NCBI GenBank assembly: GCA_905478465.1
Contig: CAJQIN010000017.1
Location: 1-55,025 of the forward strand
DNA length: 55,025 nt
Direction of reading: 5' to 3'
Source: Minisyncoccota bacterium
GTDB lineage: Bacteria > Patescibacteriota > Minisyncoccia > Phycocordibacterales > CAJQIN01
The translations under genes and the position numbers were made by a program. The notes under the pieces were generated by a model that saw only the letters and a program-made list of their open reading frames with translations, had not been told where the DNA came from and searched no databases. How positions within the stretch are numbered: position 1 is the first letter of the stretch; each line of letters starts with the position of its first letter. Below are positions 1 through 21,949 of this stretch, piece after piece.

Positions 1-1
1 T

Positions 2-3524: not shown

Positions 3525-3548
3525 TTTGTATTAAGGATACACATGAAC

Positions 3549-3579
3549 GCGCCTGGGATAAATTCCCAGGTGTTTTTTT
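3549..3579 (+). terminator. Rho-independent terminator
   Basis: GCGCCTGGGA-TAAAT-TCCCAGGTGT followed by T-run. Confidence 0.75.
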
Positions 3580-3605
3580 ATACAAAATGAGGTAAATTAT
3601 CTAAT

Positions 3606-4253: not shown

Positions 4254-4280
4254 TAAAATAGTTACTATAATTTAATATAT

Positions 4281-5291: not shown

Positions 5292-5294
5292 TTT

Positions 5295-5981
5295 TTATTT
5301 GTTAGAGTGTAAATTCTCTCTCTTGTCGATAATCCCATCTGAAATATGAATTAATCTATCTGCATATTTACTATATTCATTTTCATGGGTCACCATTACG
5401 ATAGTTTGACCTTTTTTATGTAAACTAGAAAGGAGTGACATGATGTTTTGAGCCGATTCAGCATCAAGATTTGCAGTGGGTTCATCTGCGAATAGAATTT
5501 TTGGTTCATGTGCAATAGCACGAGAAACACTTACGCGTTGTTGCTCACCTCCTGACATTTGGTTTGGCAGGTTTCCAGATTTATCTACAATCTCTACTTC
5601 ATTTAAGTAATGTAGGGCTTTTTCGTATGCTGTTTGTTTTGTCATTCCTTGCATAATTAACGGTATCATTATGTTTTCTGCAGCGGTTAATTCAGGAATA
5701 AGGGCATAATCTTGGAATACGTAACCCATGTTTTGTAATCGAAATGAGACACGTTCTTTGTAGGATAAGTTTTCAGTAGGTGTACCATTGATAGTAATAT
5801 CACCAGATGTTTGAGTATCAAGAAGACTCATCTGATATAGGAGAGTGCTTTTTCCGGCACCTGAGCGTCCCATTATAGAAACAAATTCACCTTTTTGGAT
5901 ATGTAGATCTATGCCACGTAATACCTTTGTTTCAATAGGTCCGTTGATATATGTTTTATATAAATTTTTTACTTTAATCAT
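5295..5981 (-). CDS. ABC transporter ATP-binding protein (LolD/MacB-type)
   Basis: Walker A GRSGAGKS, signature MSGGEQQR, ADEPTANLD, VTHE. Confidence 0.93.
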   Translation of the reverse strand: MIKVKNLYKTYINGPIETKVLRGIDLHIQKGEFVSIMGRSGAGKSTLLYQMSLLDTQTSGDITINGTPTENLSYKERVSFRLQNMGYVFQDYALIPELTAAENIMIPLIMQGMTKQTAYEKALHYLNEVEIVDKSGNLPNQMSGGEQQRVSVSRAIAHEPKILFADEPTANLDAESAQNIMSLLSSLHKKGQTIVMVTHENEYSKYADRLIHISDGIIDKRENLHSNK

Positions 5982-5986
5982 AATAG

Positions 5987-7237
5987 TTAGTTTCTTCCTA
6001 ATATAGAGTCAAGTGTATTTTTTCTAATAATCATGCGAGAAGGAAGATATCCTGCTATAACTGTGATAATTATAAGTAATGTTGCACTTCCAAGAGTTTC
6101 AGTTAGGGGTGCGACAAGAATACCATCACTAAATGTAAAGTTAATAGGATGTGCTGCAAAATAAGGAACTAGAATTATCTGAAGTATTGAAAAACCTATA
6201 ACTGCTCCAATGATGGCATAGAAGAATGATTGAAATATATAGGAAATTTCAATAGCTGTTCCGTTAATGCCAATTCCTTTTAAAATACCTATGAATTTTT
6301 GTCTTGTAAGGGCATTAATAAAGATAACAATAAATACTGTAATAGAAGCTACCGCAAGTCCAATATAACTAATAATATTTCCAAGTAGCTTGAATGTAGC
6401 TTTCATGTCTTTGAGAAATTTTGGTTGAGCATCTTCAAATGTTTGTACCTTAGCGTCTTTTTCTGAAATACCACTTGCAATAAGTGCTTTTTTTACAAGA
6501 ATAGGATCAGCATCACCTGTGAGTTTAATAGATATCTCATTAATGTTAGTTTGTCCGATAAGGTTTTTAAATTGTTTTTCAGGAAAAAATACCCGTCTAT
6601 CAATCTCATCAACCTTACTTTTCAAAATACCTTTTACTGTAACTTCGCGTACAGCACCGTTTATTTCAATGCGTACTTTCGATCCTACATATACATTTTT
6701 TAATGTGCTGAATAATTCTGATTCAAAATCAAGATATCGGTCAATGAGAAGCGCACCAATAATTACTTGATCAAAATCATCTACATCTAGATACTCTCCT
6801 TCAATAAGAAGTTTACTCAACCCCGTTGTCTGGTCTTCTGCTATGGGATCTATGCCGGCAAAAGATGTGCTCACTTCTTCTGGAATATCTGTTTCTTTTA
6901 TTCTCTCTTTGTAATTAGATTCAATAATTCCTCCTGAAGTATATCTGGGACTTATAAAAGAAACTTCCGGTATAGAATTTACAATATTAATAATATCGGG
7001 ACTCCCTTCAATGAATGTTTTTTCTCTGGGTGTAATGATAATAATATCTCCTGTGTAATGTTCTTTTGTATTTTGGATAGCTCCCTCAAGAAGACCTACT
7101 AAAATTCCACTGATCACTACTAGGTTTAAAAAGGTAAGTATCATTATGGATATGATAAGTCCTGTGGTCCATAGACTTGAACGGCGGAGTTGTCGTATTG
7201 CTAGGAAAAAACCAACTCTAAGATTTGATAAAAACAT
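5987..7237 (-). CDS. ABC transporter permease (MacB/FtsX/LolC-E type)
   Basis: N-terminal TM, large extracellular loop, three C-terminal TMs, IGILKGIG motif; operon with the ATPase. Confidence 0.88.
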   Translation of the reverse strand: MFLSNLRVGFFLAIRQLRRSSLWTTGLIISIMILTFLNLVVISGILVGLLEGAIQNTKEHYTGDIIIITPREKTFIEGSPDIINIVNSIPEVSFISPRYTSGGIIESNYKERIKETDIPEEVSTSFAGIDPIAEDQTTGLSKLLIEGEYLDVDDFDQVIIGALLIDRYLDFESELFSTLKNVYVGSKVRIEINGAVREVTVKGILKSKVDEIDRRVFFPEKQFKNLIGQTNINEISIKLTGDADPILVKKALIASGISEKDAKVQTFEDAQPKFLKDMKATFKLLGNIISYIGLAVASITVFIVIFINALTRQKFIGILKGIGINGTAIEISYIFQSFFYAIIGAVIGFSILQIILVPYFAAHPINFTFSDGILVAPLTETLGSATLLIIITVIAGYLPSRMIIRKNTLDSILGRN

Positions 7238-7242
7238 AAGAG

Positions 7243-8706
7243 TTATTTATTTTGAGGATTGAGAAGTATTGAATCTCCCGCATTAAGACCGTTTAATATT
7301 TCTGTATTTCCATGAGAATCATTTTTTCCTATCATGACATCTTTTTTTTGTGTTTTTTTAGAAACCATGTCATAGGTGTATACATAAGTATTAGAATCCT
7401 CTTTGATAAGTGACCGAGTTGGTATCATCAAAACATTATCTCTTTTGTCTGTAATTATAGAGATGTCAGCTGTCATACCAGAACGTATTCGTGAATCTTC
7501 TGTGTCAAAATAGAACGTTGTTTTGTATGTAGAAATACCGTCTCGGATAGTTTCTATTGGGTCTATGGTAATCAGGTTTGCATAGAATATATCTGTTTCG
7601 TCATATGCATCAAAAATCATTTCTGCTCTTTGTTCGGGCATTATTTTTGCAATATAAACTTCAGGAACGTAGGCTTCTAATTTTAGTCCTTCTAAGCTAA
7701 TCATAGAAACAAGTTCTGTTCCAGAGCTCGCTATCTCACCAATTTGTGCATTTTGTACGGTGATGATTCCATCAAAAGGTGCGCGGATAATTGTTTTTGA
7801 GAGTTCTACTTGGTAGCCTTCAACACTTGCTTCAGCAGAAGTTATTTTACTTTGTTGTAGAGGTATTTTAGAACTTACTATTCTTAGAGACTCCTCTGCG
7901 GTGATTATGTTTGATAGGGCAGTTTGTACGGTATTTCTTGCTGTCGCTATGTCGCTTTTGAAAGATTCTCTGGTGCTAGTTGAAAGGTATGATTCAGCTG
8001 TATAAGAATTTACAGCGTTTGAAATGTTATCAAGAAAAGTAATTATATTAGAAATATCAGATTTTATTTTGATTACTGTATTTTCTGTAAAATTTTGTAC
8101 AGAAAGTGTACGAACAAGAGTTTCTAGATTCGAAAGTAACATCTGTACCTCACGACGTTTTGTATTGAGTTCTTCTTTGGCATCTAGATTTCCAAGAGCA
8201 AAAGATATTTTAGGATTAGCTGATTGTGGGTTTTCATAGAGAGGGTCAACATTGTTACGTATTGCATTATCTATTGAAGTAAATGAGTCTTGCAGGGTAG
8301 CAATCATTGATTCTTTTGCGTTGGTGAATTCCGTGGGGACACCTGAGGCATTTTTTGTGTATAGATCGTCTAGAGTAGTTACTTCTGACTGAAGATCAGC
8401 TTGTGCTTTGGAAAGATCAGAAATGATACCTGAGGAATCAATTTCAACAAGAGGATCTCCTTTTGATACGTGGTCTCCTGTTTCTGTGTACACATTATAA
8501 ATTTTTCCGCTTGTCTCAAAACCTAGATGCGCATCTCTAATAGGAGCAACTTTTCCTGAAACCTCGACGTTTTGTTCGAATGTCTTTAAGGAAACACTAA
8601 TTATTGTGCCATCTGTGTGAGTATTTGAGAATATCTTATATGCAGTATATCCCGTTAGACTTATTATAAGAATAACTAAAATAATAAAGACCTTTTTTTT
8701 AATCAT
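7243..8706 (-). CDS. efflux membrane-fusion/periplasmic adaptor (HlyD/MacA-like)
   Basis: N-terminal anchor, lipoyl motifs (GDHVSKGDPLV; IRAPFDGII), long coiled coil, RSGMTA, ILNGLNAGD. Confidence 0.88.
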   Translation of the reverse strand: MIKKKVFIILVILIISLTGYTAYKIFSNTHTDGTIISVSLKTFEQNVEVSGKVAPIRDAHLGFETSGKIYNVYTETGDHVSKGDPLVEIDSSGIISDLSKAQADLQSEVTTLDDLYTKNASGVPTEFTNAKESMIATLQDSFTSIDNAIRNNVDPLYENPQSANPKISFALGNLDAKEELNTKRREVQMLLSNLETLVRTLSVQNFTENTVIKIKSDISNIITFLDNISNAVNSYTAESYLSTSTRESFKSDIATARNTVQTALSNIITAEESLRIVSSKIPLQQSKITSAEASVEGYQVELSKTIIRAPFDGIITVQNAQIGEIASSGTELVSMISLEGLKLEAYVPEVYIAKIMPEQRAEMIFDAYDETDIFYANLITIDPIETIRDGISTYKTTFYFDTEDSRIRSGMTADISIITDKRDNVLMIPTRSLIKEDSNTYVYTYDMVSKKTQKKDVMIGKNDSHGNTEILNGLNAGDSILLNPQNK

Positions 8707-8746
8707 TACCCTTTATTATACCGCAGTTAAAAGATTCTTTCAAAAA

Positions 8747-9013
8747 TTATTTTTTATGCTTAAGAGTATAGTTTTTTTGAATATAAATAGCGTCTTTGCG
8801 AACCCCTTCAAGTAAACGTGCTTCCATACTTTCAGGATCTGTCTCTTGTATTTTTTCTTCAATAAAACCAATTATAGTAGCAAGACTTGCAAAATAATCA
8901 CCGGTTTTGATATGAAAATCTCGACGAGTATCATCATCACGATTCATTTCGTCTCGAAAAAATCTAGAAGTAATTCTGGTTGAGTATGTTCGTAAGTATT
9001 TTCTAATAGCCAT
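8747..9013 (-). CDS. hypothetical protein
   Basis: 88-aa ORF directly downstream of radC on the same strand. Confidence 0.65.
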   Translation of the reverse strand: MAIRKYLRTYSTRITSRFFRDEMNRDDDTRRDFHIKTGDYFASLATIIGFIEEKIQETDPESMEARLLEGVRKDAIYIQKNYTLKHKK

Positions 9014-9031
9014 AAAATAAAAAAATAATAT

Positions 9032-9769
9032 TTATAAGTGATAATTTACAGGAATACTTTTGTATGAATCTTTGGTGACAACTATGTGGTCGATGAGGTC
9101 AATCCCTAAGGTTGTACCTGCTTGAATAAGTTGTTCTGTGATACTTACATCCGCTTCGGAAGGATCTATATTACCAGATGGATGATTATGTACAAGTATT
9201 ACTGCAGCTGCTGCATATTCAATTGCGGGACGAAACACTTCTCTCGGGTGTACGATGCTTGAATCAAGCGTACCAATTGAGATAACTTCGTCATGAATTA
9301 CTTTATAGTGACTATTTAGATAAATACCACGTAGGTATTCTTTACTTAATCCATGCATATCTTTCGTGTGTTCGTAAACCTCTTTTGCCGTACGTATAAT
9401 GGGTGCGGTAAGGTTATCGTTTGAAAAAAATCTTCTACCTAGTTCTCCGCAAGCCACAATCTGACTAGCTTTTCCTTGTGGGATATCAAGGTGTTTCGCA
9501 AGCGTAGATACATTTTTTTGACTCAAAATACTTTTTTCTCCATATTCTCTAATAATACGGGTACTCATAGACATAACCTCTTCTTTCTTTGTTCCTGTGC
9601 CCAGTATAATTGCTAGTAGTTCTTGTATTGATAGGTGGCTAGGACCGTGTGCAATAAGTTTCTCTCGGGGTTTTTCATTTGTAGGAAGATCACGCACTCT
9701 AAGTGTGTAGCGTGGATCCTTACTATCTAGTAGAAACATTTCTCTTTTAAGAATGTAACGAGTTTGCAT
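9032..9769 (-). CDS. radC: RadC/UPF0758 JAB-domain protein
   Basis: PREKL, ELLAIILGTG, VHPREVF, HNHPSG, DHIVV. Confidence 0.93.
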   Translation of the reverse strand: MQTRYILKREMFLLDSKDPRYTLRVRDLPTNEKPREKLIAHGPSHLSIQELLAIILGTGTKKEEVMSMSTRIIREYGEKSILSQKNVSTLAKHLDIPQGKASQIVACGELGRRFFSNDNLTAPIIRTAKEVYEHTKDMHGLSKEYLRGIYLNSHYKVIHDEVISIGTLDSSIVHPREVFRPAIEYAAAAVILVHNHPSGNIDPSEADVSITEQLIQAGTTLGIDLIDHIVVTKDSYKSIPVNYHL

Positions 9770-9828
9770 ATCATTATTAAGTGTATCACGGGGATTTATC
9801 TTCTGTGTATTTAAACTGTGGAAATCTA

Positions 9829-9864
9829 ATTAACGTATCTTGTATGCTTACAAGATACGTTAAT
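9829..9864. terminator. perfect 16-bp inverted repeat, probable terminator of the M15 peptidase gene
   Basis: ATTAACGTATCTTGTA-TGCT-TACAAGATACGTTAAT, immediately past the stop at 9867. Confidence 0.6.
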
Positions 9865-9866
9865 AT

Positions 9867-10740
9867 TTAATCAAACATCTCAACAAGATATTCATCTATT
9901 TCACGCTGATCTAGGTCATAGAAATGAAGATTTTTTCTGTGTAAATATGTTGCCAAGTTTTTTCCCACAAAACGCCAATGCCAAGGTTCGTATTGATAAT
10001 AGGCATTTCCTTCTGGATAAGAAAGTGTAAATCCGTATTTGTGAGCGTTGGCAAGCATCCATTCGTAGGCATATGAAGTAGCAAAAGATGTATACGAACC
10101 ACTTAATTCTTTTGTTGTCAGGTCTATTGTTGTACCTAGTTGGTGCTCAGAGTATCCCTGGTCTGCTGAAAAAGTGTTGGCACCTGATCCATACGATACA
10201 GCATAAGAAGATTTAAGATTTGTTTGTTCGTCGAAAGATCGAAAAGCAGAAATTATTTGTAAATCTACGTTGTCATCTTCTGCTTCATCAATCATGTCTT
10301 TCAAGAAAGGCCATGTATTTGAATGGATATATTGTTCTTGTTCTCTAGAGTCATCAATATATTTATCGCTTATTTTTCGAAGTTTTTCTGGTTGATAGTG
10401 TTCATTAAGAAAATATACTTTTGAATATTTTTGTAGAAGTTCTTTGTCTGTGTTTTGAATTTTAACAATAATCCCAAGAACATCTTCGGCTTCTTGAACT
10501 CGTTCTTCAAGATCGTTATTACGTTCCTGCTCTCTTTGAAAAGCTTCATGAAGAAAAGTAATGTCATGTTCTTTCTGGGTAAGAGTAGATTCTGTGTTTA
10601 GGATTATATCGTTAAGTGTTTGTATTTCAGAAATATTATTTTTATGTGTCGTATAGAAAAGATACCCAAGAACACCGGAAGTTCCTAGTAAAATAATTAT
10701 GATACTTATCGTTATTTTTAGCTGCATTTCTTTTGACATG
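9867..10740 (-). CDS. membrane-anchored D-Ala-D-Ala carboxypeptidase (VanY/M15B) with coiled-coil stalk
   Basis: SAFRS, SEHQLGTTID, YEPWHWRFVG; N-terminal TM. Start uncertain (near 10740, or 10805 as in the ORF track). Confidence 0.88.
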
Positions 10741-10828
10741 GTGTGTATTTTAACACAGAAACATAAATGTTTTTTATTGGATATTTCAGAATCTGATTTT
10801 GACATTACTCATGATAGTATAAGTATCT

Positions 10829-12517
10829 ATGACTCAAAAAGAAGCGCTCGACCTACTAAAACTTGGACATAATGTATTTCTCACTGGTCCTGCTGGAAGT
10901 GGAAAAACATATCTTTTGAATCAATATATTGAATATTTACATGAACATGGCGTAGGTGTAGCCGTGACAGCTTCAACCGGTATTGCTGCGACGCATATTG
11001 GGGGACAAACTATACATTCCTGGAGCGGTATGGGGGTACGAGATACGTTGGCAGATGATGAGCTTGAGAAGGTTATTAAAAATGATCGTATCAAGCGTAA
11101 TTTAAAGAAAACTAAGGTTTTAATCATAGACGAAGTGTCTATGTTGCATGCTCATCAATTAGATATGATAGAAAGGATTACGCGACATGCGATAGACTTC
11201 ACGAAACCTTTTGGCGGACTGCAGGTTATACTTTGTGGAGATTTTTTCCAATTACCTCCTGTGTCTAGAGGGGGATTCGGTGGTAATGATAAAACTTTTG
11301 CATACGAGTGTGATGCGTGGGAAGAGGGAGAGTTTCAGATATGTTATCTAGAAGAACAGTTTCGACAAAATGAAGATAGTTTGTTAGATATTTTGAATGC
11401 AATACGTTCAGGAGAAGCAAATGAAAATGTAAAGATACCTCTTCGAGCTCGTTATAGAAAGGAACCAGAGGGTCCAGTTCGTCCAACGCGTTTGTACGTT
11501 CGTAATAAAAATGTTGATACTATAAATCAATCAGAACTTGATAAACTAGAGGGTCGAGAAGAAGTATATTATATGGAAACTCATGGCTTTTCGACATTAG
11601 TTGAAGTGTTACAGCGTAACTGTATGGCTTCTGAAGAATTGCATTTGAAAATCGGAGCAGAGGTGATGTTTGTAAAAAATTCTGTAACAGGAATGTATGT
11701 GAACGGTACACGTGCTGTTGTGGAGGGATTTGATGAAGATGAAAAATTGCCGATCGTTCGCACATTTGATGGACGAAGGATTGTTGTTATTCCTGAAGAA
11801 TGGCATTTAGAAGAGAACGGTTCTGTGCGGGCAACTATTAAGCAGATACCTCTTCGTTTGGCGTGGGCTATTACTGTGCACAAAAGTCAGGGTATGACGC
11901 TAGATGCTGCTGAGGTTGACCTATCTGACGCATTTGAGCCTGGTATGGGATATGTAGCTTTATCTAGAGTCCGTACACTTTCTGGACTGAAGTTAATGGG
12001 ACTAAATGATATGGCGCTTTCTGTGCACCCAAAAATATTATTACATGATGAGAAGTTTCGTAATTGGTCTACTTCTGCGGGGAAAATTCTCGCCACACTT
12101 TCTGATTCCAAAAAAGAAAAAGTACATCTTGAGATATTGCTTGTGCGTTTTGGAGGTGTAAAAGAGGGTGGGCAGATTATTGAAAAGAAAACAATGCAAG
12201 AAAAAATAAAAAAGAAACCTACGATTGAAATAACCGCTGATCTAATACCCAAGGTAACTTCAATTGAGAGTCTAGCTGATAAAAGGGGATTGACTGTTGG
12301 TACAGTTTTGAACCATTTAGAAAAATTACAAGGTATGAAAAAATTACCAGATATTTCTCATTTAAAACCATCTAAGAAAATTTTTGATTCTATTGTGAAG
12401 GAGTTTGAAAAATCAAAAGATGGAAAATTAACTATTATTTTTAAGAATTTAAATGAGAAATATTCATTTGAAACATTGAGATTAGTACGTTTGTGTAAAA
12501 ATAATGACACAAAATAA
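10829..12517 (+). CDS. Pif1-family helicase with C-terminal HTH
   Basis: TGPAGSGKT, ASTGIAA, IDEVSM, GDFFQLPPV, AWAITVHKSQGMTL, YVALSRVR. Confidence 0.92.
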   Translation: MTQKEALDLLKLGHNVFLTGPAGSGKTYLLNQYIEYLHEHGVGVAVTASTGIAATHIGGQTIHSWSGMGVRDTLADDELEKVIKNDRIKRNLKKTKVLIIDEVSMLHAHQLDMIERITRHAIDFTKPFGGLQVILCGDFFQLPPVSRGGFGGNDKTFAYECDAWEEGEFQICYLEEQFRQNEDSLLDILNAIRSGEANENVKIPLRARYRKEPEGPVRPTRLYVRNKNVDTINQSELDKLEGREEVYYMETHGFSTLVEVLQRNCMASEELHLKIGAEVMFVKNSVTGMYVNGTRAVVEGFDEDEKLPIVRTFDGRRIVVIPEEWHLEENGSVRATIKQIPLRLAWAITVHKSQGMTLDAAEVDLSDAFEPGMGYVALSRVRTLSGLKLMGLNDMALSVHPKILLHDEKFRNWSTSAGKILATLSDSKKEKVHLEILLVRFGGVKEGGQIIEKKTMQEKIKKKPTIEITADLIPKVTSIESLADKRGLTVGTVLNHLEKLQGMKKLPDISHLKPSKKIFDSIVKEFEKSKDGKLTIIFKNLNEKYSFETLRLVRLCKNNDTK

Positions 12518-12847: not shown

Positions 12848-12878
12848 CAAAAACCACCTTGTCATATAAAGTGGTTTT
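12848..12878 (-). terminator. hairpin, probable original tRNA-Asn terminator displaced by integration
   Basis: AAAACCAC...GTGGTTTT inverted repeat directly adjoining TGGCTCC (reverse complement GGAGCCA, a tRNA 3' end). Confidence 0.65.
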
Positions 12879-12879
12879 G

Positions 12880-12988
12880 GCTCCGTCTACAGGACGGGTT
12901 CAGAACCGTTAATTGGAAGAAAATACAAAAGGAATTACAGTTTAGTGGTATTTTAGAGATGTTTCCAGATTTAGTACTTCAGAACTAA
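12880..12988 (+). repeat. 109-bp direct repeat copy 1 (att arm encoding the putative displaced recombinase C-terminus)
   Basis: 105/109 identical to 14423-14531; reads LRLQDGFRTVNWKKIQKELQFSGILEMFPDLVLQN* from 12881. Confidence 0.92.
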
Positions 12989-13008
12989 ATAATGCTATTA
13001 TATTGTTT

Positions 13009-13374
13009 ATGAATAGTTTGGTTAAGAAAATCACAGTTATCGCTATTTCTTTTATGATTTTAATGGCAGGTGTATTCTGCTATCAAGGAATGCAGTCAAT
13101 GAGCTCACATTGTTCTGTTGATATGAACCATACTTCTGTTTGGTGTAGTGATTTTATTTCTCACGGAACAATAATAAGTAGTGCCATTATAACCACATTC
13201 GCTACAATCCTTTCTATACTAGCCGTTCTTTTTTCTATAAAGCCACTATTTGCTTTATTTACTAAAATAAAACAAGTAACAACTCTTTTATATAAAACTA
13301 GAGATAGAATACCAATACTTTCTCCAATACAACTCGCAATTTCAAACGGAATAATTCATCCTAGAATTCCTTAG
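13009..13374 (+). CDS. small membrane protein, Cys/His-containing, first gene of a metal-resistance cassette
   Basis: Two hydrophobic segments flanking SHCSVDMNH..WC..H; same strand and directly upstream of the DUF305 and DUF411 genes. Confidence 0.65.
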   Translation: MNSLVKKITVIAISFMILMAGVFCYQGMQSMSSHCSVDMNHTSVWCSDFISHGTIISSAIITTFATILSILAVLFSIKPLFALFTKIKQVTTLLYKTRDRIPILSPIQLAISNGIIHPRIP

Positions 13375-13419
13375 TTTTTAGTATTTTCTTTATTAAAAAC
13401 TTTAACTATTAAATTAAAT

Positions 13420-13830
13420 ATGAAAAACAATGTATTAGTAATTGGGTTACTAACCTTAATAATTGGTTTGTTTGTTGGATATACACTTGCTCCACGAACA
13501 ATGATGGATACTGAAACAATGGTAGAAATGCACGATGAGGTGGAAGAATATGAAGAACACGAAGAAGAAATTATCTCTGGAGACGGAGTGATGCAACACG
13601 CAATGGAAGAAATGATGCGTCCTCTTATGGGAAAAACAGGAGAAGAATATGAAAAAGCTTTTCTTGAAATGATGATAGTTCACCATATCGGAGCAATTGA
13701 AATGGCAGAAGATTTATTAGGGCAAACAGATAGACCAGAACTTGTAAAAATGGGTAATGATATTATCACTGTCCAAACAGAGGAAGTTGATATGATGAAA
13801 GGTTGGCTAGATGATTGGTTTAACTCATAA
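13420..13830 (+). CDS. DUF305 (CopM-like, ferritin-fold) exported metal-binding protein
   Basis: N-terminal TM, Met/His-rich linker, FLEMMIVHHIGAIEMA...IITVQTEEVDMMKGWL. Confidence 0.88.
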   Translation: MKNNVLVIGLLTLIIGLFVGYTLAPRTMMDTETMVEMHDEVEEYEEHEEEIISGDGVMQHAMEEMMRPLMGKTGEEYEKAFLEMMIVHHIGAIEMAEDLLGQTDRPELVKMGNDIITVQTEEVDMMKGWLDDWFNS

Positions 13831-13833
13831 ATT

Positions 13834-14298
13834 ATGTTGAATAAACTATTAACAGCTCTTCTTCTGATTATTCTAGTTGTTTCTATCGGTTGGATGATAA
13901 ATCAAAAAGATAAACCAGCATCAGAGAATAAAATCCTAGCTACTATCTATAAAGACCCATACTGTGGTTGTTGTGGAAAGTGGGGTTCTTATATGGAGAC
14001 TAAAGGATATGAGACAGATACAGTCTTGGAAGATGATATGTCAAAAATCAAAGAACAGTTTGGTGTTCCACAGGAACTTCAAAGTTGTCATACATCAGAA
14101 ATTGAAGGTTATGTTGTTGAGGGACATATCCCAAATGAAGCGGTAGAAAAGTTATTAGAAGAAAGACCTGATATAAAAGGAATTGGAATGGCAGGAATGC
14201 CTAGTGGTTCACCTGGTATGCCAGGACCAAAAGCAGACTTCTTAATCTATGAAATAAATCACGATGGAACTAAAGGTGATTTGTTTATGAAATTGTAA
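13834..14298 (+). CDS. DUF411 (CopG-like) copper-binding protein
   Basis: YKDPYCGCCGKW, SCHT, VEGHIP, GMPSGSPGM. Confidence 0.9.
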   Translation: MLNKLLTALLLIILVVSIGWMINQKDKPASENKILATIYKDPYCGCCGKWGSYMETKGYETDTVLEDDMSKIKEQFGVPQELQSCHTSEIEGYVVEGHIPNEAVEKLLEERPDIKGIGMAGMPSGSPGMPGPKADFLIYEINHDGTKGDLFMKL

Positions 14299-14325
14299 GT
14301 CGCTTCTATAGAATGTAAAACCTTG

Positions 14326-14359
14326 GAAAAACACCCCTTGAAAGACAGAGGTGTTTTTC
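14326..14359 (+). terminator. Rho-independent terminator of the copper cassette
   Basis: GAAAAACACC...GGTGTTTTTC followed by Ts. Confidence 0.7.
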
Positions 14360-14422
14360 TTTTAGTTCTGAATCCTGTTTGGGTTCAGAAAATATGTAGC
14401 TTAAAATAAGGCTCAAATAATA

Positions 14423-14531
14423 GCTCCGTCTACAGGACAGGTTCAGAACCGTTAATTGGAAGAAAATACAAAAGGAATTACAGTTTAGTGGTATTTTAGA
14501 GATGTTTCCAAGTTTAGTGCTTCAGAACTAA
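14423..14531 (+). repeat. 109-bp direct repeat copy 2
   Basis: Reads LRLQDRFRTVNWKKIQKELQFSGILEMFPSLVLQN* from 14424; 4 mismatches to copy 1. Confidence 0.92.
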
Positions 14532-14532
14532 T

Positions 14533-15861
14533 TTACTTATTTTTCTCGTTTTCAATTAAACCCCAATAGGGTTCATAGTAATTCTCTCCTGAAACATCCT
14601 TGAGTATTTTTATTTGTTCCTTCGGTATACTATCTATGATTGAATCCAAAAATGTTAAAAAGTCATCTTTATTTCTCAGTGTAAAAATATTTTGTGTAAA
14701 TTCATCTAACCTTAATTCAGAGGGCGTGTCTTTAGGTAATTCAGTTAGTAGTCTTTTTGATTCAATATCGATAAACATAGCATCGCAGTAGGGTAAAAAG
14801 CTAGAAATAAATTCAAAATCAACAAATGATTTAGGAGGTTGGGTTTTACCCAAATGAGCATCTCGAGAGAGATTTGCGTACATTACCGAACTTATTTTAA
14901 TCTTAGGTATTTGAAGTAAGGATTTATAATCTGAAAAATAATCAGATATCCTCTGAACAATCTCAGGCTCAGGCACATTGTTTAGCCTGCACTTTCTCAT
15001 TAAGTCATCCAGTAAATCCTTAGAAGTTGGTGGAAATATGTTTTCTGGTGTCCAATCTACTTTTTCACCTTTAGCTACTTTCAACATCAATTCTTTTTGT
15101 TTATCGTAAAATTTAACAACATTAGTTATGTGAAATCTTAAAGATAATGCTTCATTGCGTACGTTTTTTATAAAATCAAATTCCTTAACTTGTTTCCACT
15201 CTGACCATATCTCAGAAAGCCTTTTTTGTGATTGTTTATTTCTTTCCACCAAATCATTTATCTCGTCTTCTTTTGGGGTTTGTGAAACTGAAATTCCTAT
15301 ACCCATTGTCCATTCGTGTATCTTATCTCCTTCAAATGAAATGTTTTCTGGAGAAAAAGTAAAGTCTGTTTTTTTGTCCTGTAGCCAATTTTCAAAATGT
15401 TTAGAAATTTGCTCTCTTTCTATCAGATAGTCAGGAAAAAATGTTTTTCCTGAAGATAAGTGTTCATACAGTCTTCTGATATATTGAAAATTTATTTTTC
15501 CCACAGCGGATTCATTTTTATGAAAGAAACTGTCTGGAAATATTACCGCTTGAGATTTGGATACATACTCCAACTTTTCAAATAATTTCGTCCAGAACTG
15601 GTCGCCTTTTATTTTTTTATGTTTTGGGTGCGAAGAATCTAACAGTATTGTTAAATTACTTAAAATAAATTGGTCTAAATATACGACTTTCTTTTTTATT
15701 GAGGGGAAAGGAAAGGTTTCTTCGTGAGAACATTCAGTACACTCTCTTTGATAGGTTGAACTACCTGAAATTGGTATAAAAACACCGAAAGTATTTTCAC
15801 TTTTGCATTTAGGACAGTCTCTGTATGGACCAGAAATAAACATATCTCTTGTAATCTTCAT
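14533..15861 (-). CDS. hypothetical protein: N-terminal Zn ribbon plus putative PIN-like domain
   Basis: CPKC...CTEC; VVYLDQFIL and DFEFISSFLPYCDAMFID resemble PIN acidic motifs (by eye). Confidence 0.6.
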   Translation of the reverse strand: MKITRDMFISGPYRDCPKCKSENTFGVFIPISGSSTYQRECTECSHEETFPFPSIKKKVVYLDQFILSNLTILLDSSHPKHKKIKGDQFWTKLFEKLEYVSKSQAVIFPDSFFHKNESAVGKINFQYIRRLYEHLSSGKTFFPDYLIEREQISKHFENWLQDKKTDFTFSPENISFEGDKIHEWTMGIGISVSQTPKEDEINDLVERNKQSQKRLSEIWSEWKQVKEFDFIKNVRNEALSLRFHITNVVKFYDKQKELMLKVAKGEKVDWTPENIFPPTSKDLLDDLMRKCRLNNVPEPEIVQRISDYFSDYKSLLQIPKIKISSVMYANLSRDAHLGKTQPPKSFVDFEFISSFLPYCDAMFIDIESKRLLTELPKDTPSELRLDEFTQNIFTLRNKDDFLTFLDSIIDSIPKEQIKILKDVSGENYYEPYWGLIENEKNK

Positions 15862-15915
15862 TATATTTAGCTTATCAATCTTGATATGTAATGTAAACTA
15901 AAGTAAAGTATTATT

Positions 15916-16716
15916 ATGAATGATGACTCATATAGAAAGGAAAGAGAATCGCAGGCTTTTCAAAAGTTTATAAATTATGTGGAAAATTTAAAAAGTAATC
16001 CAGATTTCATATCTGAAATTAAGTGGTTTCGAAGATATCACGTTAAATATGATAGTTTAGAATCAATACCTGAAAATGGATTACCACTACCAAATAATCA
16101 CGAGGAACATTTTAATAATAAATTAGAATATGATTATATGATGAATAAAGAAGGGGATGATTACCATAATTTTCCTGAATTCCAAAAAAGAAAATGGGCT
16201 TTTGAGGAAAAATATGGTCTCAATATTTTTGGAGAAGCTTTTGATTATTTATTATTTTATAATTCAGTGATACCGATGATGGATATGGGCTATGCTCGTT
16301 TTTCTGATGTCTATGACTTGGTAAGTCTTTCTAATGCTTCCGTTGGATTATACGAAGACAGAAAAGGTTCAGATATGAACACAGGACTTTTTATTCGTTC
16401 AGAGGTTGCTCCAATTACCCCAGTAGCCATCGTCGTAAATCCATATATGACACAAAGAGATATTATTGATTTTATTAAAAAGACCTACAAGACATCAATA
16501 GAACCAATACAGAAAAGATATCGTAAGAAAAATATAAAATTAAAAGATTCAAGAAAAAAATCTTCTAAAAAACAAATTAGAAACGATTTTATATATGATA
16601 ATTGTGACTTACCACTAGCAGAACTAACGTCTCTTGTTGCAAGTAAGTTTGGAGATATTCTAGATTATACTTATATACAAAAAATAATTAAAAAAGAAAA
16701 AGAAAAAAGAGAATAA
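15916..16716 (+). CDS. hypothetical protein, basic C-terminus (possible DNA-binding)
   Basis: 266-aa ORF in the element, Lys/Arg-rich helical C-terminal third. Confidence 0.7.
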   Translation: MNDDSYRKERESQAFQKFINYVENLKSNPDFISEIKWFRRYHVKYDSLESIPENGLPLPNNHEEHFNNKLEYDYMMNKEGDDYHNFPEFQKRKWAFEEKYGLNIFGEAFDYLLFYNSVIPMMDMGYARFSDVYDLVSLSNASVGLYEDRKGSDMNTGLFIRSEVAPITPVAIVVNPYMTQRDIIDFIKKTYKTSIEPIQKRYRKKNIKLKDSRKKSSKKQIRNDFIYDNCDLPLAELTSLVASKFGDILDYTYIQKIIKKEKEKRE

Positions 16717-16809
16717 GTGAACTCACTTATTTTTTAAACGAATACAAATAAAATCGTATATTTATATTTTAAGTAAAGATATCCTGAAGACATCCTTCGG
16801 GATATTTTT

Positions 16810-16974
16810 ATGCAGGATATAAATCAAAATAAAAATAAGAAAAACAAAATAAACTTTCAAGATTTTTCGATTGAACAAAAGAAGAACCTTGTCGGTGCTT
16901 TCGTTTGGCTTATTGAACAAGATAAAAAACAAAATCCTGCACTTTATAAGTTAAAAACAGCAAAAAATGATTGA
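16810..16974 (+). CDS. small hypothetical protein (54 aa), absent from the ORF track
   Basis: MQDINQNKNKKNKINFQDFSIEQKKNLVGAFVWLIEQDKKQNPALYKLKTAKND*; stop overlaps the rep start. Confidence 0.6.
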   Translation: MQDINQNKNKKNKINFQDFSIEQKKNLVGAFVWLIEQDKKQNPALYKLKTAKND

Positions 16975-18088
16975 TACTGTATGTCTTTTAGTTCCTAAAC
17001 ACAAACTATATTTCTTATCAGGAATATCTAGTTGGGATTTGTATTCTAAAACAGATAACTATTCAAAGTTTGTTCGTAATCCAAGTAAGGCTGAAAAGGA
17101 AACTGGAAAATACTTCCCTAGACTTACTGGATATAGTCGTAGATTTGGACAAGACGCAAATGTGAAAATGGAATTTTCTGTTCCCAAGTTGCTTTATCTA
17201 AATAATTTAGATGAATTAGAAAATAAGGATTTTCCTGAGGTAATTGATACTTTAAGGGAAAGATTAAAAGATATGGGAGTAATTATTTCAAAATCGTTAC
17301 TTGAAAATGCACCAATTAGTTCTGTTCATTTCTCTAAAAATATTCTAATTGAAGACGGATATACAGTTAATTATTTAATTTCTGAAATGAATAAAGCAGA
17401 CTTAAGAAAGAGTTTTGATTTTGCTAAGACTAGATTTATGAATGATGGACAAAGTCTTTATGCTCACACAACTGCACATCAGATGGTCATTTATGACAAA
17501 ATCGCAGACCTTAAAAAAGGTAAGAAAAGAGCAATTGATAAAGACCCAACTCTGTATCAACAATCACTTTTTACCGAACTAAGTGGTCATAAAAACTTTA
17601 GTGAAATGAAAGAAGTTATCAGGTTTGAGATTAGGTTAAACCACAAACAAAAACTCAATAAAGTTTTAGAAAATCTTGGGTTTAAGAAAAATCCAACATT
17701 CAAAGATGTCTTTAGTTCTGAAATGAGCAAAAAGATAGTTAGCGACTATTGGAATACTCTAATTAAAGAAAGAAACTTAGGAATTTTCTCTATATCACTT
17801 AGCTTTAAGGAAATATTACAGATATTACTTGTTTCTGAAAATATGATAGGACCAAAGCAAGCAATATATTTTCTAGGACTATTTGTTCTTGCGAGAGACG
17901 GAAATGGTATGCGTGAACTTAGAAATATTATTTCAAAAAAGGCACACGACAGAACTTGGTATCGGATATCTAAAGATGTAAGAAGTGCTAATGAACTTAT
18001 AACAAAAAATAAACTTAGGAGCTGGGTTACCCAGATTGATAGAAAGTTATCAGATTATAAACCTTACAAAATTAAAGAAAATAAATAA
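16967..18088 (+). CDS. phage/plasmid replication initiator (gene II/X, Rep_trans-like rolling-circle type)
   Basis: MIDTV start, EFSVPKLLYLNN, VIYDKIAD, IRFEIRL motifs resemble this family. Confidence 0.68.
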   Translation: MIDTVCLLVPKHKLYFLSGISSWDLYSKTDNYSKFVRNPSKAEKETGKYFPRLTGYSRRFGQDANVKMEFSVPKLLYLNNLDELENKDFPEVIDTLRERLKDMGVIISKSLLENAPISSVHFSKNILIEDGYTVNYLISEMNKADLRKSFDFAKTRFMNDGQSLYAHTTAHQMVIYDKIADLKKGKKRAIDKDPTLYQQSLFTELSGHKNFSEMKEVIRFEIRLNHKQKLNKVLENLGFKKNPTFKDVFSSEMSKKIVSDYWNTLIKERNLGIFSISLSFKEILQILLVSENMIGPKQAIYFLGLFVLARDGNGMRELRNIISKKAHDRTWYRISKDVRSANELITKNKLRSWVTQIDRKLSDYKPYKIKENK

Positions 18089-18089
18089 T

Positions 18090-18500
18090 ATGAATAAAGA
18101 TAAAAAACAAAAAAGCACTGAAGAAAAATTCAAAGATAGTCTGTCAGAAAGTATGGCAATGTGTCACAGAAATATACTTTCTGAAAATGTAAAAAGAGGT
18201 ATGAGATTAAAAAGAATAAGAAATTTTGAACTAAAGTTTGGCTTAGATAAACACGAATCATTAGGCAAAGAATTTATAGAAAGAGTTAGATTGTATAAGA
18301 GTAAAATTAAAGAGGTCGAAACAAGTACCCTAGAAGAAACTCTTGATAGTTTCAAGAGAGATTTGTACCCACAGAAAGAATTAAAGGTTTGGGAAGAAAT
18401 AGCAAATTACTATAGTAGTAAAGTAAAAGACAATCCTAAGATGAACCTCAAAGAAAAGAGAGCATTATTCACTGAGGCTTTAATTTGGACATTAGGGTAA
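18090..18500 (+). CDS. hypothetical protein containing a serine-recombinase helix-E-like segment
   Basis: ATG 1 nt after the rep stop; contains SMAMCHRNILSENVKRGMR. Confidence 0.65.
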   Translation: MNKDKKQKSTEEKFKDSLSESMAMCHRNILSENVKRGMRLKRIRNFELKFGLDKHESLGKEFIERVRLYKSKIKEVETSTLEETLDSFKRDLYPQKELKVWEEIANYYSSKVKDNPKMNLKEKRALFTEALIWTLG

Positions 18501-18545
18501 AGGGCTTGGCTTGTAAACCATTGTAAAGTATAATAATAAACAAAT

Positions 18546-19367
18546 ATGAATAAAAAAATAACTAAAAAAGAAGAGGTTGCTTTGTTTGAGCATAATGAAG
18601 TTAGAAAAATCTGGCACAAAGAAAGGTGGTATTTTGCCATAAATGATGTTGTCCAAATACTAACTGAATCTAAAGATGTTCAGGGCTATATAAAAGATAT
18701 AAGAAGACGTGATAAGGAGATTTCTAAAGGGTGGGGGCAAATTGCCACCCCCCTTGTTGTGGACACCAAAGGAGGAAAACAGAAAATGAATTGTTCTGAT
18801 TTAGAAGGAATGTTTCGAATCATCCAGTCTATACCTTCTCAAAAAGCAGAACCGTTTAAGAGATGGCTTGCTAAAGTTGGTAAAGAGAGAATTGATGAAA
18901 TTGCTGACCCAGAGTTAGCAGTTAATAGAGCTAAGGAAATTTATACTAAAAAAGGGTACGACAAAACTTGGATTGATAAAAGAATGAGAGGTATTGCAGT
19001 CAGGAATACTCTTACGGATGAATGGAAGGAAAGAGATATAAAAGGTTTCGAATATGGAATTCTTACTAATGAAATTTATTCAGGAGTATTTGAACAGGAC
19101 CATAAATCCCTAATGAAAATTAAAGGTCTAGATAAGAAAAAAGGAAATAATCTAAGGGACCATATGGGTGATGTTGAACTTATTCTGACAATGCTTGCTG
19201 AAGCCACTTCTACTGAAATTACAAAAAGTAAAGATTCAAAAGGTCTAGACAATATTAAGAAGGATGTTAAGAAAGGGGGTCAGATTGCAGGAGAAACAAG
19301 AAAGAAGATTGAGAAAGAGACAGGTCAAAAAGTTATTACTCAAAAAAATGTTAAAAAATTAAAATAA
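18546..19367 (+). CDS. Bro-N domain (phage antirepressor-like) protein
   Basis: EVRKIW..ERWYFAINDVV, RIIQSIPSQKAEPFKRWLAKVG.ERIDEIADPE, NLRDHM. Confidence 0.88.
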   Translation: MNKKITKKEEVALFEHNEVRKIWHKERWYFAINDVVQILTESKDVQGYIKDIRRRDKEISKGWGQIATPLVVDTKGGKQKMNCSDLEGMFRIIQSIPSQKAEPFKRWLAKVGKERIDEIADPELAVNRAKEIYTKKGYDKTWIDKRMRGIAVRNTLTDEWKERDIKGFEYGILTNEIYSGVFEQDHKSLMKIKGLDKKKGNNLRDHMGDVELILTMLAEATSTEITKSKDSKGLDNIKKDVKKGGQIAGETRKKIEKETGQKVITQKNVKKLK

Positions 19368-19371
19368 TATT

Positions 19372-19563
19372 ATGAGTAACACTAATAAAGAAAAAGAATT
19401 TTATAAAGCAGAGGATTTGGCTAAGATTCTAGATGTGAATATTATGACCATATATAGATATATTAAAGCAAATAAACTAAAAGCTTATAAGATTGGTAAA
19501 GAGTATCGTATAGAGAGCGTTGAGTTTAATAATTTTTTAAAAAGTGTGCAAAATAAAAAATAA
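19372..19563 (+). CDS. excisionase-family helix-turn-helix protein (HTH_17-like)
   Basis: YKAEDLAKILDVNIMTIYRYIKANKLKAYKIGKEYRI. Confidence 0.88.
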   Translation: MSNTNKEKEFYKAEDLAKILDVNIMTIYRYIKANKLKAYKIGKEYRIESVEFNNFLKSVQNKK

Positions 19564-19565
19564 TT

Positions 19566-20039
19566 ATGCGAAGTAAACTTATAAAACTACTAAGATGTCT
19601 TGAAGAAGAAAGTGGTTTTTATAATAAGTATGCGGATAGTTTTGGAGAACCACAATGTGATTACGAAGTTAAAGAGTATATAGATTTTCCCAATTATAGA
19701 TTAGTTGTAAGGCGATATAATGAAAAATATCCATTACCAAAACATAATGGTTTACAACCAATAACTCTAGATAATGGTATTAAAGCAGAATTAAAAAGAA
19801 TGGAAATGGACGGACTTATAATGATAGGAAATCAGAGAGCTACCAAATATGCTTATGCAAATAATAATCGTGGTCCAGATTATGATGACGGAACATCTTT
19901 TACTACAGAAAGTATAGTCCTCACAACAAAAGGAAAAAGCGGATGGAGATATTTTATACATAAAGCAACCGAAAATCCTGTAACAACAACGATGTCTATT
20001 ATTGCTATTGTTATATCACTAATCTCACTACTCCTATGA
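19566..20039 (+). CDS. hypothetical protein with C-terminal transmembrane anchor
   Basis: 157 aa, LTTKG followed by hydrophobic tail; ATGA overlap with the recombinase. Confidence 0.7.
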   Translation: MRSKLIKLLRCLEEESGFYNKYADSFGEPQCDYEVKEYIDFPNYRLVVRRYNEKYPLPKHNGLQPITLDNGIKAELKRMEMDGLIMIGNQRATKYAYANNNRGPDYDDGTSFTTESIVLTTKGKSGWRYFIHKATENPVTTTMSIIAIVISLISLLL

Positions 20040-21586
20040 AAACAATAATCCTAGCTAGAGTTTCAACAGAAGACCAAGATTCAAATTCTGCTCAAGTTAC
20101 AAGGCTGAAGGATTTTGCAACAAGTAAAGGTTTTGCAGATAAACCAAAGATTTATGAAATTGAGGAATCATCGTCTAAGGCTAATAGGGAAAAATTACAA
20201 GAAGTAATTGAGTATATTAAAAAATCAAAAGAAAAAGTATCTTTGTTTGTTGATACTATTGACCGACTTCAAAGAAGTTTCAGAGAATCAGTTGTTTTCG
20301 ATGATTTAAGAAAAGCAGGAAAGGTTGAAATATTTTTCTTTCGAGAAAACCTACATTTACACCAAAAATCAAACAGTGCCGATTTAATTCGTTGGGATAT
20401 GGGTGTAATGTTCGCAAGAAGTTATGTTCTTCAGCTTAGTGATAATGTTAAAAGAAGGTTTGAACAAATGAGAAGAGAAGGGCATTATTTTGGTCCGCTA
20501 CCTTTAGGTTATCTAGGCGTTGCAGAAGATGAAAAGAAAAGATTAAGAGGAGAAATTTTGATTGACCCAATAAGAGGTCATCTTATACAAAAGATGTTCG
20601 AGCTTTATGCTACTGGAAATTACTCAATTACAACACTGAGAAATGAGATGATAAAACTTGGTCTTAGAACTCATAAAGACAAGCTTCCTGTAAGAAGTAT
20701 TATAGATGGAACTCTTAAAAATACCTTGTATTTTGGACTAGCACAGTCCGAACAGTATGGTCCTTATGAGGTCGAAAACGTGCCTAGATTGATTTCTAAA
20801 GACCTGTTTGATAGATGTATGGAAATACGCTTAAAACGCAAGAAAACTCCATCAAAAGCGAATTTAAAGAAAGAATATATCTTAGGAGATGGTCTTTTGA
20901 AATGTAAAAAATGTGGATGTTCTATATCTTTTGAAACTAAAACAAAACCAAGTGGAAAAGTTTATATTATAGGTGCCTGCACAAACGCAAAGGGAATGTG
21001 TAAGAAGGAATATGTAAATGAAAATGATTTTCTAAAACCAATTTATAAAGTTCTAGATAAATTTGAAACCATTACTGAAGATGTTCAAAATGATTTACTT
21101 GCTGAAATTAGAAAGCATTCAGATTCAGAAATTGAATTCCATCAAATTCAGATAAATAGAATTAGAAAACAATATCAAGATATTAAAGATAAAGATGATA
21201 GATTATTAGATGCTTTTCTGGACCAGAGTATTACTAAGGATATATATGACAAAAAACACCAAGAGTATGCCGATAAGCTACAGCTCTTAAATATTGAACT
21301 TGAAGAACATACAGATGCCAACTCAGAATACCAAACAACCCTTGTAACAGTGCTTTCTGTGGCAAAAAGAGCCAGAAGTATATTCGATGGTTGTTCTGAA
21401 CCAATGCAAAAAAGAGCATTTTTGAAATTCATACTTCAGAACCCAGTTGTAAATGGAAAAAAGCTAGAGTTTTCAATGGTTTCTCCATACAATTTGGTAC
21501 TTGAACTAGCTGATAGTCCTGATTTGCTCCCCCGGCAGGGCTCGAACCTGCGACAAATCGATTACATTGATCCTAAAATTACTTAA
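20036..21586 (+). CDS. large serine recombinase (integrase)
   Basis: ARVS catalytic motif (S10), DRLQR, PLGY, recombinase domain, CKKCG...C...C Zn ribbon, coiled coil; last 18 aa are antisense tRNA/intron. Confidence 0.93.
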   Translation: MKTIILARVSTEDQDSNSAQVTRLKDFATSKGFADKPKIYEIEESSSKANREKLQEVIEYIKKSKEKVSLFVDTIDRLQRSFRESVVFDDLRKAGKVEIFFFRENLHLHQKSNSADLIRWDMGVMFARSYVLQLSDNVKRRFEQMRREGHYFGPLPLGYLGVAEDEKKRLRGEILIDPIRGHLIQKMFELYATGNYSITTLRNEMIKLGLRTHKDKLPVRSIIDGTLKNTLYFGLAQSEQYGPYEVENVPRLISKDLFDRCMEIRLKRKKTPSKANLKKEYILGDGLLKCKKCGCSISFETKTKPSGKVYIIGACTNAKGMCKKEYVNENDFLKPIYKVLDKFETITEDVQNDLLAEIRKHSDSEIEFHQIQINRIRKQYQDIKDKDDRLLDAFLDQSITKDIYDKKHQEYADKLQLLNIELEEHTDANSEYQTTLVTVLSVAKRARSIFDGCSEPMQKRAFLKFILQNPVVNGKKLEFSMVSPYNLVLELADSPDLLPRQGSNLRQIDYIDPKIT

Positions 21587-21949
21587 AGGCATGGACTATA
21601 TCATTACCCGTCCATTATAAAATGGGTGTGGGTACAAGGCGCTTCGACCTAATGTATCTAATTAGGCCTACTCCCGTTAGGGATAGTCTCTGAACCTTCA
21701 GCATCTTTTTTAAAAAGATGAAGCTTGGCTGCTGATTACCCGCGATTGAACGCTAGGGCTTCCAGCAATTCACCTCGTTTTTCGACCTGACTTTCGTACA
21801 GGAAGCTGCGTAATACCTTTGTGAAGTTTTGTATATTCAGCACGATCGGTATATGTTCTTGTTTGTACGTATGGCATATATAAATATACGATACATGGAA
21901 GTTAGAACTTCTTCACAGTCGATTGCTCTACCAGCTGAGCTACAGGGGA
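21527..21949 (-). tRNA. tRNA-Asn(GTT), intron-containing (exons 21949-21915 and 21564-21527)
   Basis: Joined exons TCCCCTGTAGCTCAGCTGGTAGAGCAATCGACTGT|TAATCGATTTGTCGCAGGTTCGAGCCCTGCCGGGGGAG fold into a full cloverleaf with anticodon GTT. Confidence 0.93.
21565..21914 (-). ncRNA. group I self-splicing intron, 350 nt, at tRNA position 35/36
   Basis: P GAATTGCTGGAA (21771-21760), Q AATCAGCAGCC, R GTTCAGAGACTA, S AATGATATAGTCC; exon U before the 5' splice site; terminal G. Confidence 0.92.

Follow-up and report, generated by a model that had tools for sequence, protein, structure and literature searches.

The window analysed here is the whole of a 55,025-nt stretch of DNA, contig CAJQIN010000017.1 of assembly GCA_905478465.1, from a Minisyncoccota bacterium (Patescibacteriota). 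It holds an island that lies between two GCTCC cores, with a large serine integrase gene (int) at its right end and, towards its left end, two start-less copies of a peptide that forms the integrase's C-terminus in some relatives (Table 1). We give a probability of about 85% to the reading that the island is an integrated array of elements at a tRNA-Asn gene, that the attachment site attP lies inside int, that integration swaps the C-terminal tail of the integrase and that excision rebuilds the full enzyme.

Table 1. Features of the island and its borders in the window; fractions refer to the 159 related loci (ORF, open reading frame; aa, amino acids).
Feature	Position	Strand	Remarks
Hairpin and U-run	12848-12878	-	Host B arm and terminator; would lie 3' of tRNA-Asn in the empty site
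Outer left core GCTCC (attL)	12880-12884	+	Probable crossover TC at 12882-12883
Orphan integrase tail, copy 1	12881-12988	+	Start-less; same phase as int codon 498; 35 codons and a stop
Unit A	12885-14422	+	No integrase; DUF305, DUF411 and 123-aa ORF
123-aa ORF	13003-13374	+	Unit A
DUF305 ORF	13420-13830	+	Unit A; DUF305 homologue also at left end of L030 element
DUF411 ORF	13834-14298	+	Unit A
Inner core GCTCC (14423-14427) and orphan tail, copy 2	14423-14531	+	Reads LRLQDRFRTVNWKKIQKELQFSGILEMFPSLVLQN, then a stop
Unit B	14427-21528		7.1 kb; integrase-bearing
442-aa ORF	14533-15861	-	No family; no homologue in the other loci
266-aa ORF	15916-16716	+	18/159
54-aa ORF	16810-16974	+	42/159
373-aa core protein	16967-18088	+	90/159; up to 74% identity
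154-aa ORF	18036-18500	+	13/159
Bro-N / anti-repressor-like protein	18546-19367	+	3/159; PHROGs
63-aa HTH_17 (excisionase-like) protein	19372-19563	+	93/159; ~70-80% identity
157-aa ORF	19566-20039	+	2/159
Large serine integrase, integrated form, 516 aa	20036-21586	+	Residues 1-498 element-derived, 499-516 host-derived
Right core GCTCC (attR)	21526-21530	+	Crossover TC 21528-21529 = tRNA G71-A72; P arm = int codons ~487-498
tRNA-Asn(GUU) with group I intron	21526-21949	-	350-nt intron (21565-21914) after anticodon position 35; ARAGORN with intron search

An integrase gene that runs into antisense tRNA

The 516-aa integrase carries a Resolvase domain (PF00239; residues 4-150; E = 4.6e-15), a Recombinase domain, or DNA-binding domain 1 (DBD1; PF07508; 27.2 bits, exceeding the cut-off; E = 4.7e-6), and a zinc ribbon, or DBD2 (PF13408; 20.7 bits, under the curated cut-off of 25.3; E = 5.6e-4). 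The catalytic residues R8, V9 and S10 are invariant across 25 relatives, and the zinc-ribbon cysteines C290, C293, C295, C315 and C322 lie in invariant columns of the same set. The coiled coil in DBD2 appears as long helices, at residues 353-400 and 406-432 in the model of the homologue P0023 and at 348-444 in that of the window protein, and the predicted fold matches the solved structures of the SPbeta, Bxb1 and A118 integrases. In sequence and modelled fold the protein is a large serine recombinase, with recombination activity predicted.

The int ORF crosses the right core, after which residues 499-516 (PRQGSNLRQIDYIDPKIT) are antisense to the 3' exon of the tRNA-Asn gene (21526-21564) and then to the 3' end of its group I intron. 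The tRNA gene was missed by ARAGORN in its default mode and called only with intron search, and its exons can be read directly in the sequence; the intron matches Rfam family RF00028 at 21571-21887 (score, 75 bits; gathering score, 50). At the far end of the island, the frame that starts at 12881 reads LRLQDGFRTVNWKKIQKELQFSGILEMFPDLVLQN up to a stop codon and has no start codon. Both the run of int into antisense tRNA and the start-less frame behind the same core had been described in an earlier note made from the sequence alone, and both were verified here. That note had also staked its reading on a match of the far-end peptide to recombinase C-termini, and the outcome was in its favour. By BLASTP, 23 of the 35 residues are identical to the last 35 residues of P0023, a homologue in which gene and tail are contiguous (E = 3e-14). 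A hidden Markov model (HMM) of the tail, built from six contiguous database proteins with the window excluded, matched copy 1 at E = 1.3e-11 and copy 2 at E = 4.9e-12. A chance origin of the far-end peptide was ruled out by these statistics.

The motifs GTCCTG (21516-21521) and CAGGAC (12890-12895) were both located 6 nt from the core TC, which bears out the symmetry GTCCTG-N6-TC-N6-CAGGAC predicted for the attP across the joined ends. A pattern search found no intact attP in the window, as expected for an integrated element. The P arm corresponds to the last element-derived codons of int (..LELADSPxxL), the TC falls within codon 498, and the P' arm takes up the first ~8 tail codons. On the host side, the hairpin to the left of the outer core is equally borne out (folding energy of -15 kcal/mol; z = -3.16), and equivalent hairpins stand ahead of orphan tails in relatives. 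tRNA positions 73-76 are re-supplied by the element, which in the window gives G-C-A-A, so that CCA is no longer encoded by the tRNA-Asn gene; the displaced TGG at 12878-12880 is the original CCA end, in antisense. The GC content of the island (0.28-0.34, against 0.33-0.40 in the flanks) is not decisive. We also considered an island of the tyrosine recombinase type, with a long duplicated tRNA fragment, and rejected it, since the sole long direct repeat is that of the tail.

These features show how the locus is built. The large serine recombinase at the right end placed the array, from 12880 to 21530, at the 3' end of tRNA-Asn(GUU). Integration joins int codon 498 to antisense tRNA, adding 18 junk residues in the window and 2-18 in relatives, and leaves the tail-coding segment stranded without a start codon at the far end. 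Excision would rebuild a 532-aa integrase, and the tail would then belong to the free-state enzyme as a folded part under selection.

The two tail copies form a 109-nt repeat that runs from the core exactly to the stop codon; 105 of the 109 positions are identical (96%), and both frames are open, with 4 differences only. The second core and tail copy at 14423 make the insert composite, with two left ends. The earlier note had overlooked this second left end; its attP-in-int structure stands. Logan unitigs break at the 71 nt common to both tail copies, where their depth is 26.6, compared with 13.3 in the flanks (run X1). This roughly twofold depth fits the presence of both copies in one genome. 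The mobile unit may thus measure 7.1 kb, and not 8.65 kb. We put at slightly under even odds the possibility that only the inner 7.1 kb (14425-21528) moves, the outer 1.5 kb (12885-14422) being the remnant of an earlier element or an integrase-less cassette made of P' arm and tail. The 96% repeat from core to stop codon argues for it, as do the double orphan tails, 0.7-0.9 kb apart, that recur in the loci L031, L038 and L049, and the other orphan tails that the genome carries far from any family int. It is opposed by the left arm of the inner core, which resembles neither the host B arm nor the P arm of int, by the displaced CCA and terminator, which adjoin the outer site only, and by unitig depths that fail to separate the two units consistently.

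Attachment sites across the family

The preferred reading, an attP inside int that is split by integration, was examined in the best 120 integrase homologues, whose names point to Patescibacteria, and in 159 related loci (79 from species-representative genomes and 80 from metagenomes). Together with the window, these loci gave 155 distinct integrase 3' ends; 15 had too little downstream sequence, leaving 140 that could be assessed for tRNA overlap using ARAGORN with introns allowed. After the conserved ..LELADSP(N/D/T)(W/L)L, most of the 120 homologues read like antisense tRNA (RGQDSNL.., PRQDSNLRPID..), and a minority have a tail like that of the window (P0023, P0029, P0058, P0084 and, more distant, P0065 and P0105). 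A tRNA on the minus strand overlaps the integrase 3' end in 101 of the 140 cases: 66 Asn, 8 Asn with an intron, 11 intron-bearing Thr(tgt), 7 Gln and 2 Asp, plus single cases of His, Pro with an intron, Trp, Ser with an intron, Ile, Ser and Arg. The Thr(tgt) label of those 11 may simply hide this same Asn gene, its intron boundary being set two bases off. A contiguous native tail was recognised by the HMM at 10 of the 140 ends; the other 29 were classed as "other", many with a D-x-F/V-R-T variant tail (24 of these 29 listed). Dozens of integrase C-termini proposed by gene callers are therefore really antisense tRNA.

Introns are a recurrent trait of these tRNA genes: 21 of the 101 that adjoin related integrases carry one, of 204-600 nt (ARAGORN), among them those of L015, L026, L027, L031, L069, L078, L102 and others besides the window. 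Their antisense ends give rise to recurrent "IDYTYP..GGLYHHP" integrase tails in databases.

Orphan tails were counted upstream of the tRNA-joined int genes with at least 9 kb of upstream sequence (n = 50; tail HMM, E ≤ 1e-3). At least one was found in 33 of the 50, and all 73 tail matches were on the int strand. Each of them opens with a (T/x)GGCTC core, which in many loci comes directly after the host hairpin. The distance from core to core is 4.7-11.2 kb (median, 8.9 kb; n = 22), and the host-derived tails measure 2-18 aa (median, 7; n = 51). The CCA end of the tRNA coincides with a TGG codon of int (W497) in 41 of 50 cases; in 8, as in the window, it ends at C74.

In tandem arrays (L023, L025, L030, L032, L058 and L061), int is set beside the P' arm of a neighbour. 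In L030, positions 1-11526 hold a 6.4-kb element in perfect tandem at a tRNA-Gln gene, with 5017 nt repeated at 100%. Its two int copies share 100% identity across 1458 nt that reach exactly to the core; beyond it, the first runs on into the native tail (giving 519 aa) and the second into a tRNA-Gln tail (giving 494 aa). Either L030 is a true dimer or its assembly was led through reads of circle junctions, and in both cases one element shows the two protein forms. Small elements of ~5-11 kb accumulate in arrays at the tRNA-Asn genes of minimal Patescibacteria genomes. At least two more tail classes exist, a short ..(W/L)DDVRT.. (11-19 aa) and ..DDFRTIDWAKEYPYP.., in L049 (at 11340), L065 (at 9445), L123, P0012, P0025, P0054 and P0076 as well as in L032, L061, L131 and L037; all retain a DNA motif similar to GAC..GTTC(A)GAAC.

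The family site is GTCC-N8-TC-N8-GGAC, with the crossover TC at tRNA positions 71-72. Half-site logos, read outward from the TC, gave GCCAgtTAGGAc... for the P arm (n = 93), CC..TagTGGAcaaGTTCAGAAC for the P' arm (n = 48) and CGcgGGtAGGAaTCGAACC for the B' arm (n = 47). In the B arm (48 attL left arms), conservation is limited to GCCA, so the chromosomal target is effectively one half-site, on the T-arm side of the tRNA. A single conserved half-site as the target is unusual among large serine recombinases. Serine integrases can therefore target tRNA genes and, in Patescibacteria, do so with essentially one conserved half-site. An inner (A/T)GGA motif lies at +8 to +11, in the same register in the P, P' and B' arms, whereas an outer GAAC lies at +15 to +18 in B' (the tRNA T-loop) and at +20 to +23 in P', a shift of 5 bp. 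Solved complexes show the same 4-5-bp register shift of DBD2 between attB and attP half-sites, according to PMC11722253 and a phiC31 preprint.

The tail in the integrated and free enzyme

The distal part of the tail (I-K-S-E-L-Q-F-S-G-I-L) varies mostly at third codon positions: mean entropy is 0.98, 0.74 and 1.44 at positions 1, 2 and 3, respectively, in codons that lie beyond any plausible attachment arm. The median ratio of nonsynonymous to synonymous substitution rates (dN/dS) was 0.46 in the distal part (659 pairs) and 0.23 in the proximal part (955 pairs), the pairs being non-independent. Since its first codons double as the P' arm, the tail is conserved both as a protein part and as DNA. 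An AlphaFold2 model of P0023 (61 sequences; its numbering is that of the window plus 5) has a mean predicted local distance difference test (pLDDT) value of 85.6 and places helices in the tail at 503-510 and 514-523, the successive ten-residue blocks of the tail scoring 84, 85 and 73. In the 516-aa form of the window, residues 499-516 score below 50 and are predicted to be disordered.

Solved integrases align only to model residues 1 to 491-497 (SPbeta, 9dxh_A, Z = 17.2, chain residues 13-537; Bxb1, Z = 14.9), those of A118 and phiC31 reaching residue ~489. The crossover accordingly falls 6-12 residues past the canonical fold, and both states encode a complete integrase. In the models and alignments, both forms retain the catalytic domain, DBD1, the zinc-ribbon DBD2 and the coiled coil, the change being confined to an add-on that follows the last canonical helix. 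The tail swap claimed earlier thus holds for the exchange of the C-terminus and needs correction in its extent, since what is exchanged is an add-on of ~34 aa to an integrase that is complete in both forms.

Several observations weigh against the reading of a tail swapped by integration and restored by excision. No orphan tail was found within 10 kb of 17 of the 50 tRNA-joined int genes. Among the joints listed for the Logan contigs of four runs, with sides of 21-35 nt, none joined 12882 or 14425 to 21528, and only the integrated form was seen; such contigs drop rare variants, so this negative says nothing on excision. A search of 61 genomes with the left-flank DNA, aimed at the empty site, gave only short, weak matches outside the genome itself. 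No syntenic site was found in genomes of the same genus: the homologue of the Pif1-like left-flank protein in G002 (64%) adjoins tRNA-Val, not tRNA-Asn, and G001 has no match. Nor were circular forms detected, a terminal direct repeat of at least 20 nt being present in none of the 80 metagenome loci. As for the tail itself, Arg in its proximal part is encoded by AGA in 52 of 58 cases (third-position entropy, 0.29), which indicates that part of the conservation is that of P' arm DNA and not of protein. The distal dN/dS is merely moderate and comes from non-independent pairs, and the contrast in tail confidence between the two models is partly due to their differing alignments. Lastly, the tails in arrays are borrowed from the neighbouring element and belong to several classes, which argues against tight co-adaptation of tail and integrase.

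What the swap does for the element is a separate question, for which two answers appear about equally likely. In the first, our preferred one at a chance clearly below even, the tail would tune directionality, or the response to a directionality factor, according to state. For example, it may mask or remodel the DBD2 surface on which directionality factors dock; the enzyme would then be integration-committed when it comes from the free element and excision-responsive when it comes from the inserted one. The contact of SPbeta Int F532 with its directionality factor is described in PMC11722253, and that of the acidic extreme C-terminus of phiC31 integrase in the phiC31 preprint. The ends of the structural alignment, which give no residue-level placement, put the F conserved in ..SPFNLVLEL.. 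close to F532, ~10 residues before the swap point. In PMC12286644, C-terminal DBD2 extensions are proposed to block the directionality-factor site; SCCmec recombinases have an extra C-terminal DBD2 element that, according to its authors, could do so. The SCCmec extension consists of beta strands and is always present, whereas the tail described here is predicted to be helical and is present only with an intact attachment site.

In the second answer, the swap is neutral: attP merely overlaps the 3' end of int in a compact element, the tail is read-through that seems conserved owing to the P' arm and to recent shared ancestry, and both forms behave alike. The DNA constraint on the proximal tail, visible in the AGA bias and in the conserved GTTCAGAAC, agrees with this, as do the exchange of tails of several classes among array neighbours and the retention of every canonical domain in the integrated form. 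It sits less well with the distal 25 codons, which lie outside a 25-30-bp arm and yet show the third-position excess and the dN/dS of 0.46, with a tail length that stays at ~29-42 codons with a common ..LQN end, and with the helices predicted for the tail at a pLDDT of ~85. We regard this neutral by-product as a serious competitor with odds below one half.

A bolder version of the first answer, which we consider doubtful, is that a tail across attP acts as a built-in state sensor, a two-helix extension by the DBD2/hinge surface that directionality factors use, by which direction would be partly hard-wired in DNA topology. With an intact site, in a free circle or at a tandem junction, the extension would commit the enzyme to integration; its loss on insertion would make the enzyme competent for excision or responsive to a factor for it. 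If this were true, cassettes that lack an integrase and carry only P' arm and tail, such as unit A and the genome's other orphan tails, could make use of it as well. Serine integrases are leading tools for genome insertion, and how their direction is set is an active structural question; a natural family whose C-terminus toggles with the integration state offers a direct test of whether C-terminal DBD2 extensions control the response to directionality factors.

That the island is a fixed relic with an inactive integrase and decaying tail copies is very improbable: the lack of excision products in Logan contigs and the unrecognisable left arm of the second tail copy agree with it, but the int ORF is intact with R8-V9-S10 and the zinc cysteines invariant, both tail frames are open with 4 differences, and the core genes, likewise intact, share 70-80% identity with their counterparts in many elements.

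Known systems, gene content and further tails

The integrase shares its domain order and fold with the canonical large serine integrases (SPbeta SprA, Bxb1, phiC31 and A118/LI), as well as short quasi-symmetric sites, a non-palindromic central dinucleotide and the ~5-bp DBD2 shift. It differs from them in that int coding sequence makes up the P arm, the crossover and the P' arm alike, in that a tRNA 3' end is targeted and only its B' half is conserved, and in that the ~34-aa add-on is present only in the free or tandem state. To our knowledge, the attP of model phages lies outside int. In BPs-type systems, the split gene is reportedly the repressor, the integrase is said to be a tyrosine recombinase, the truncated product is reported to lack a degradation tag, and the C-terminal difference is said to act as a switch. 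PMC4557955 places the attP of mycobacteriophage BPs within a gene whose integrated and free products differ at the C-terminus; here the split gene is int, and no repressor overlaps the core.

The "suicidal" tyrosine integrases of the SSV type, from archaeal viruses and plasmids, have their recombination site within the integrase ORF, and their genes are partitioned by integration into a tRNA gene (PMC7253208). The window integrase likewise holds the recombination site in its own ORF, but the SSV-type enzymes belong to the tyrosine superfamily and are left as two inactive gene parts, whereas here only serine recombinase domains are found and residues 1-498 retain all canonical ones. Islands found by Islander/TIGER are inserted at tRNA 3' ends, restore the displaced nucleotides and form tandem arrays at one tRNA (PMC4383910). 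The present element differs in sharing 4-5 bases, with no long tRNA duplication, and in using a serine instead of a tyrosine recombinase. We found no description in the literature of a serine integrase with attP in its own gene, nor of a tRNA-Asn-targeting serine integrase family in Patescibacteria; supplements and subscription journals fell outside both searches, and an earlier description is possible.

Among the element's other genes, that of the 63-aa HTH_17 protein, just upstream of int, encodes the best candidate for a directionality factor or regulator; a predicted complex of it with integrase residues 275-516 scored 0.00 against a mark of 0.32, which counts neither for nor against a contact. 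The 373-aa core protein has no Pfam match. Its feature score in Atlas, a language-model tool, reached 0.97 for clusters that carry Phage_CRI/G2P in part (Phage_CRI in 25-57% of their members), with recognition under the tool's mark, and it may be a rolling-circle replication initiator, which we offer as a lead only. A PHROGs search found no phage structural proteins among the proteins of the element, and IMG/VR gave no close relatives (14 loci, all at most 27% identical). We would class the element as small and integrative, plasmid- or satellite-like, rather than as a demonstrated phage.

The gene on the left flank (10829-12517) codes for a Pif1-like helicase whose C-terminal part holds an HTH_40 domain. 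A contig of run X5 joins 21564 to 21915 and is probably an intron-less tRNA-Asn of another organism. A second tRNA-Asn(GTT) of the source genome (G000), at C23:411-484 on a 4.2-kb contig, lacks an intron and differs in its acceptor end; contamination of 4.9% is reported for this genome, and this tRNA may belong to another organism. It was rejected as a paralogous attB, since its 3' end differs.

Three further tail-HMM matches occur in the same genome (C2:131391-131786, minus strand; C2:153719-153877, plus strand; C9:545-682, plus strand; E = 1e-6 to 8e-6), without a family integrase nearby. They may be integrase-less cassettes or relics. The one on C9 begins at a TGCTCC core, ~660 bp from a tRNA-Arg(gcg), from which one or two small ORFs separate it, and the minus-strand one on C2 retains a P-arm-like ..SDRPNWL ahead of the tail.

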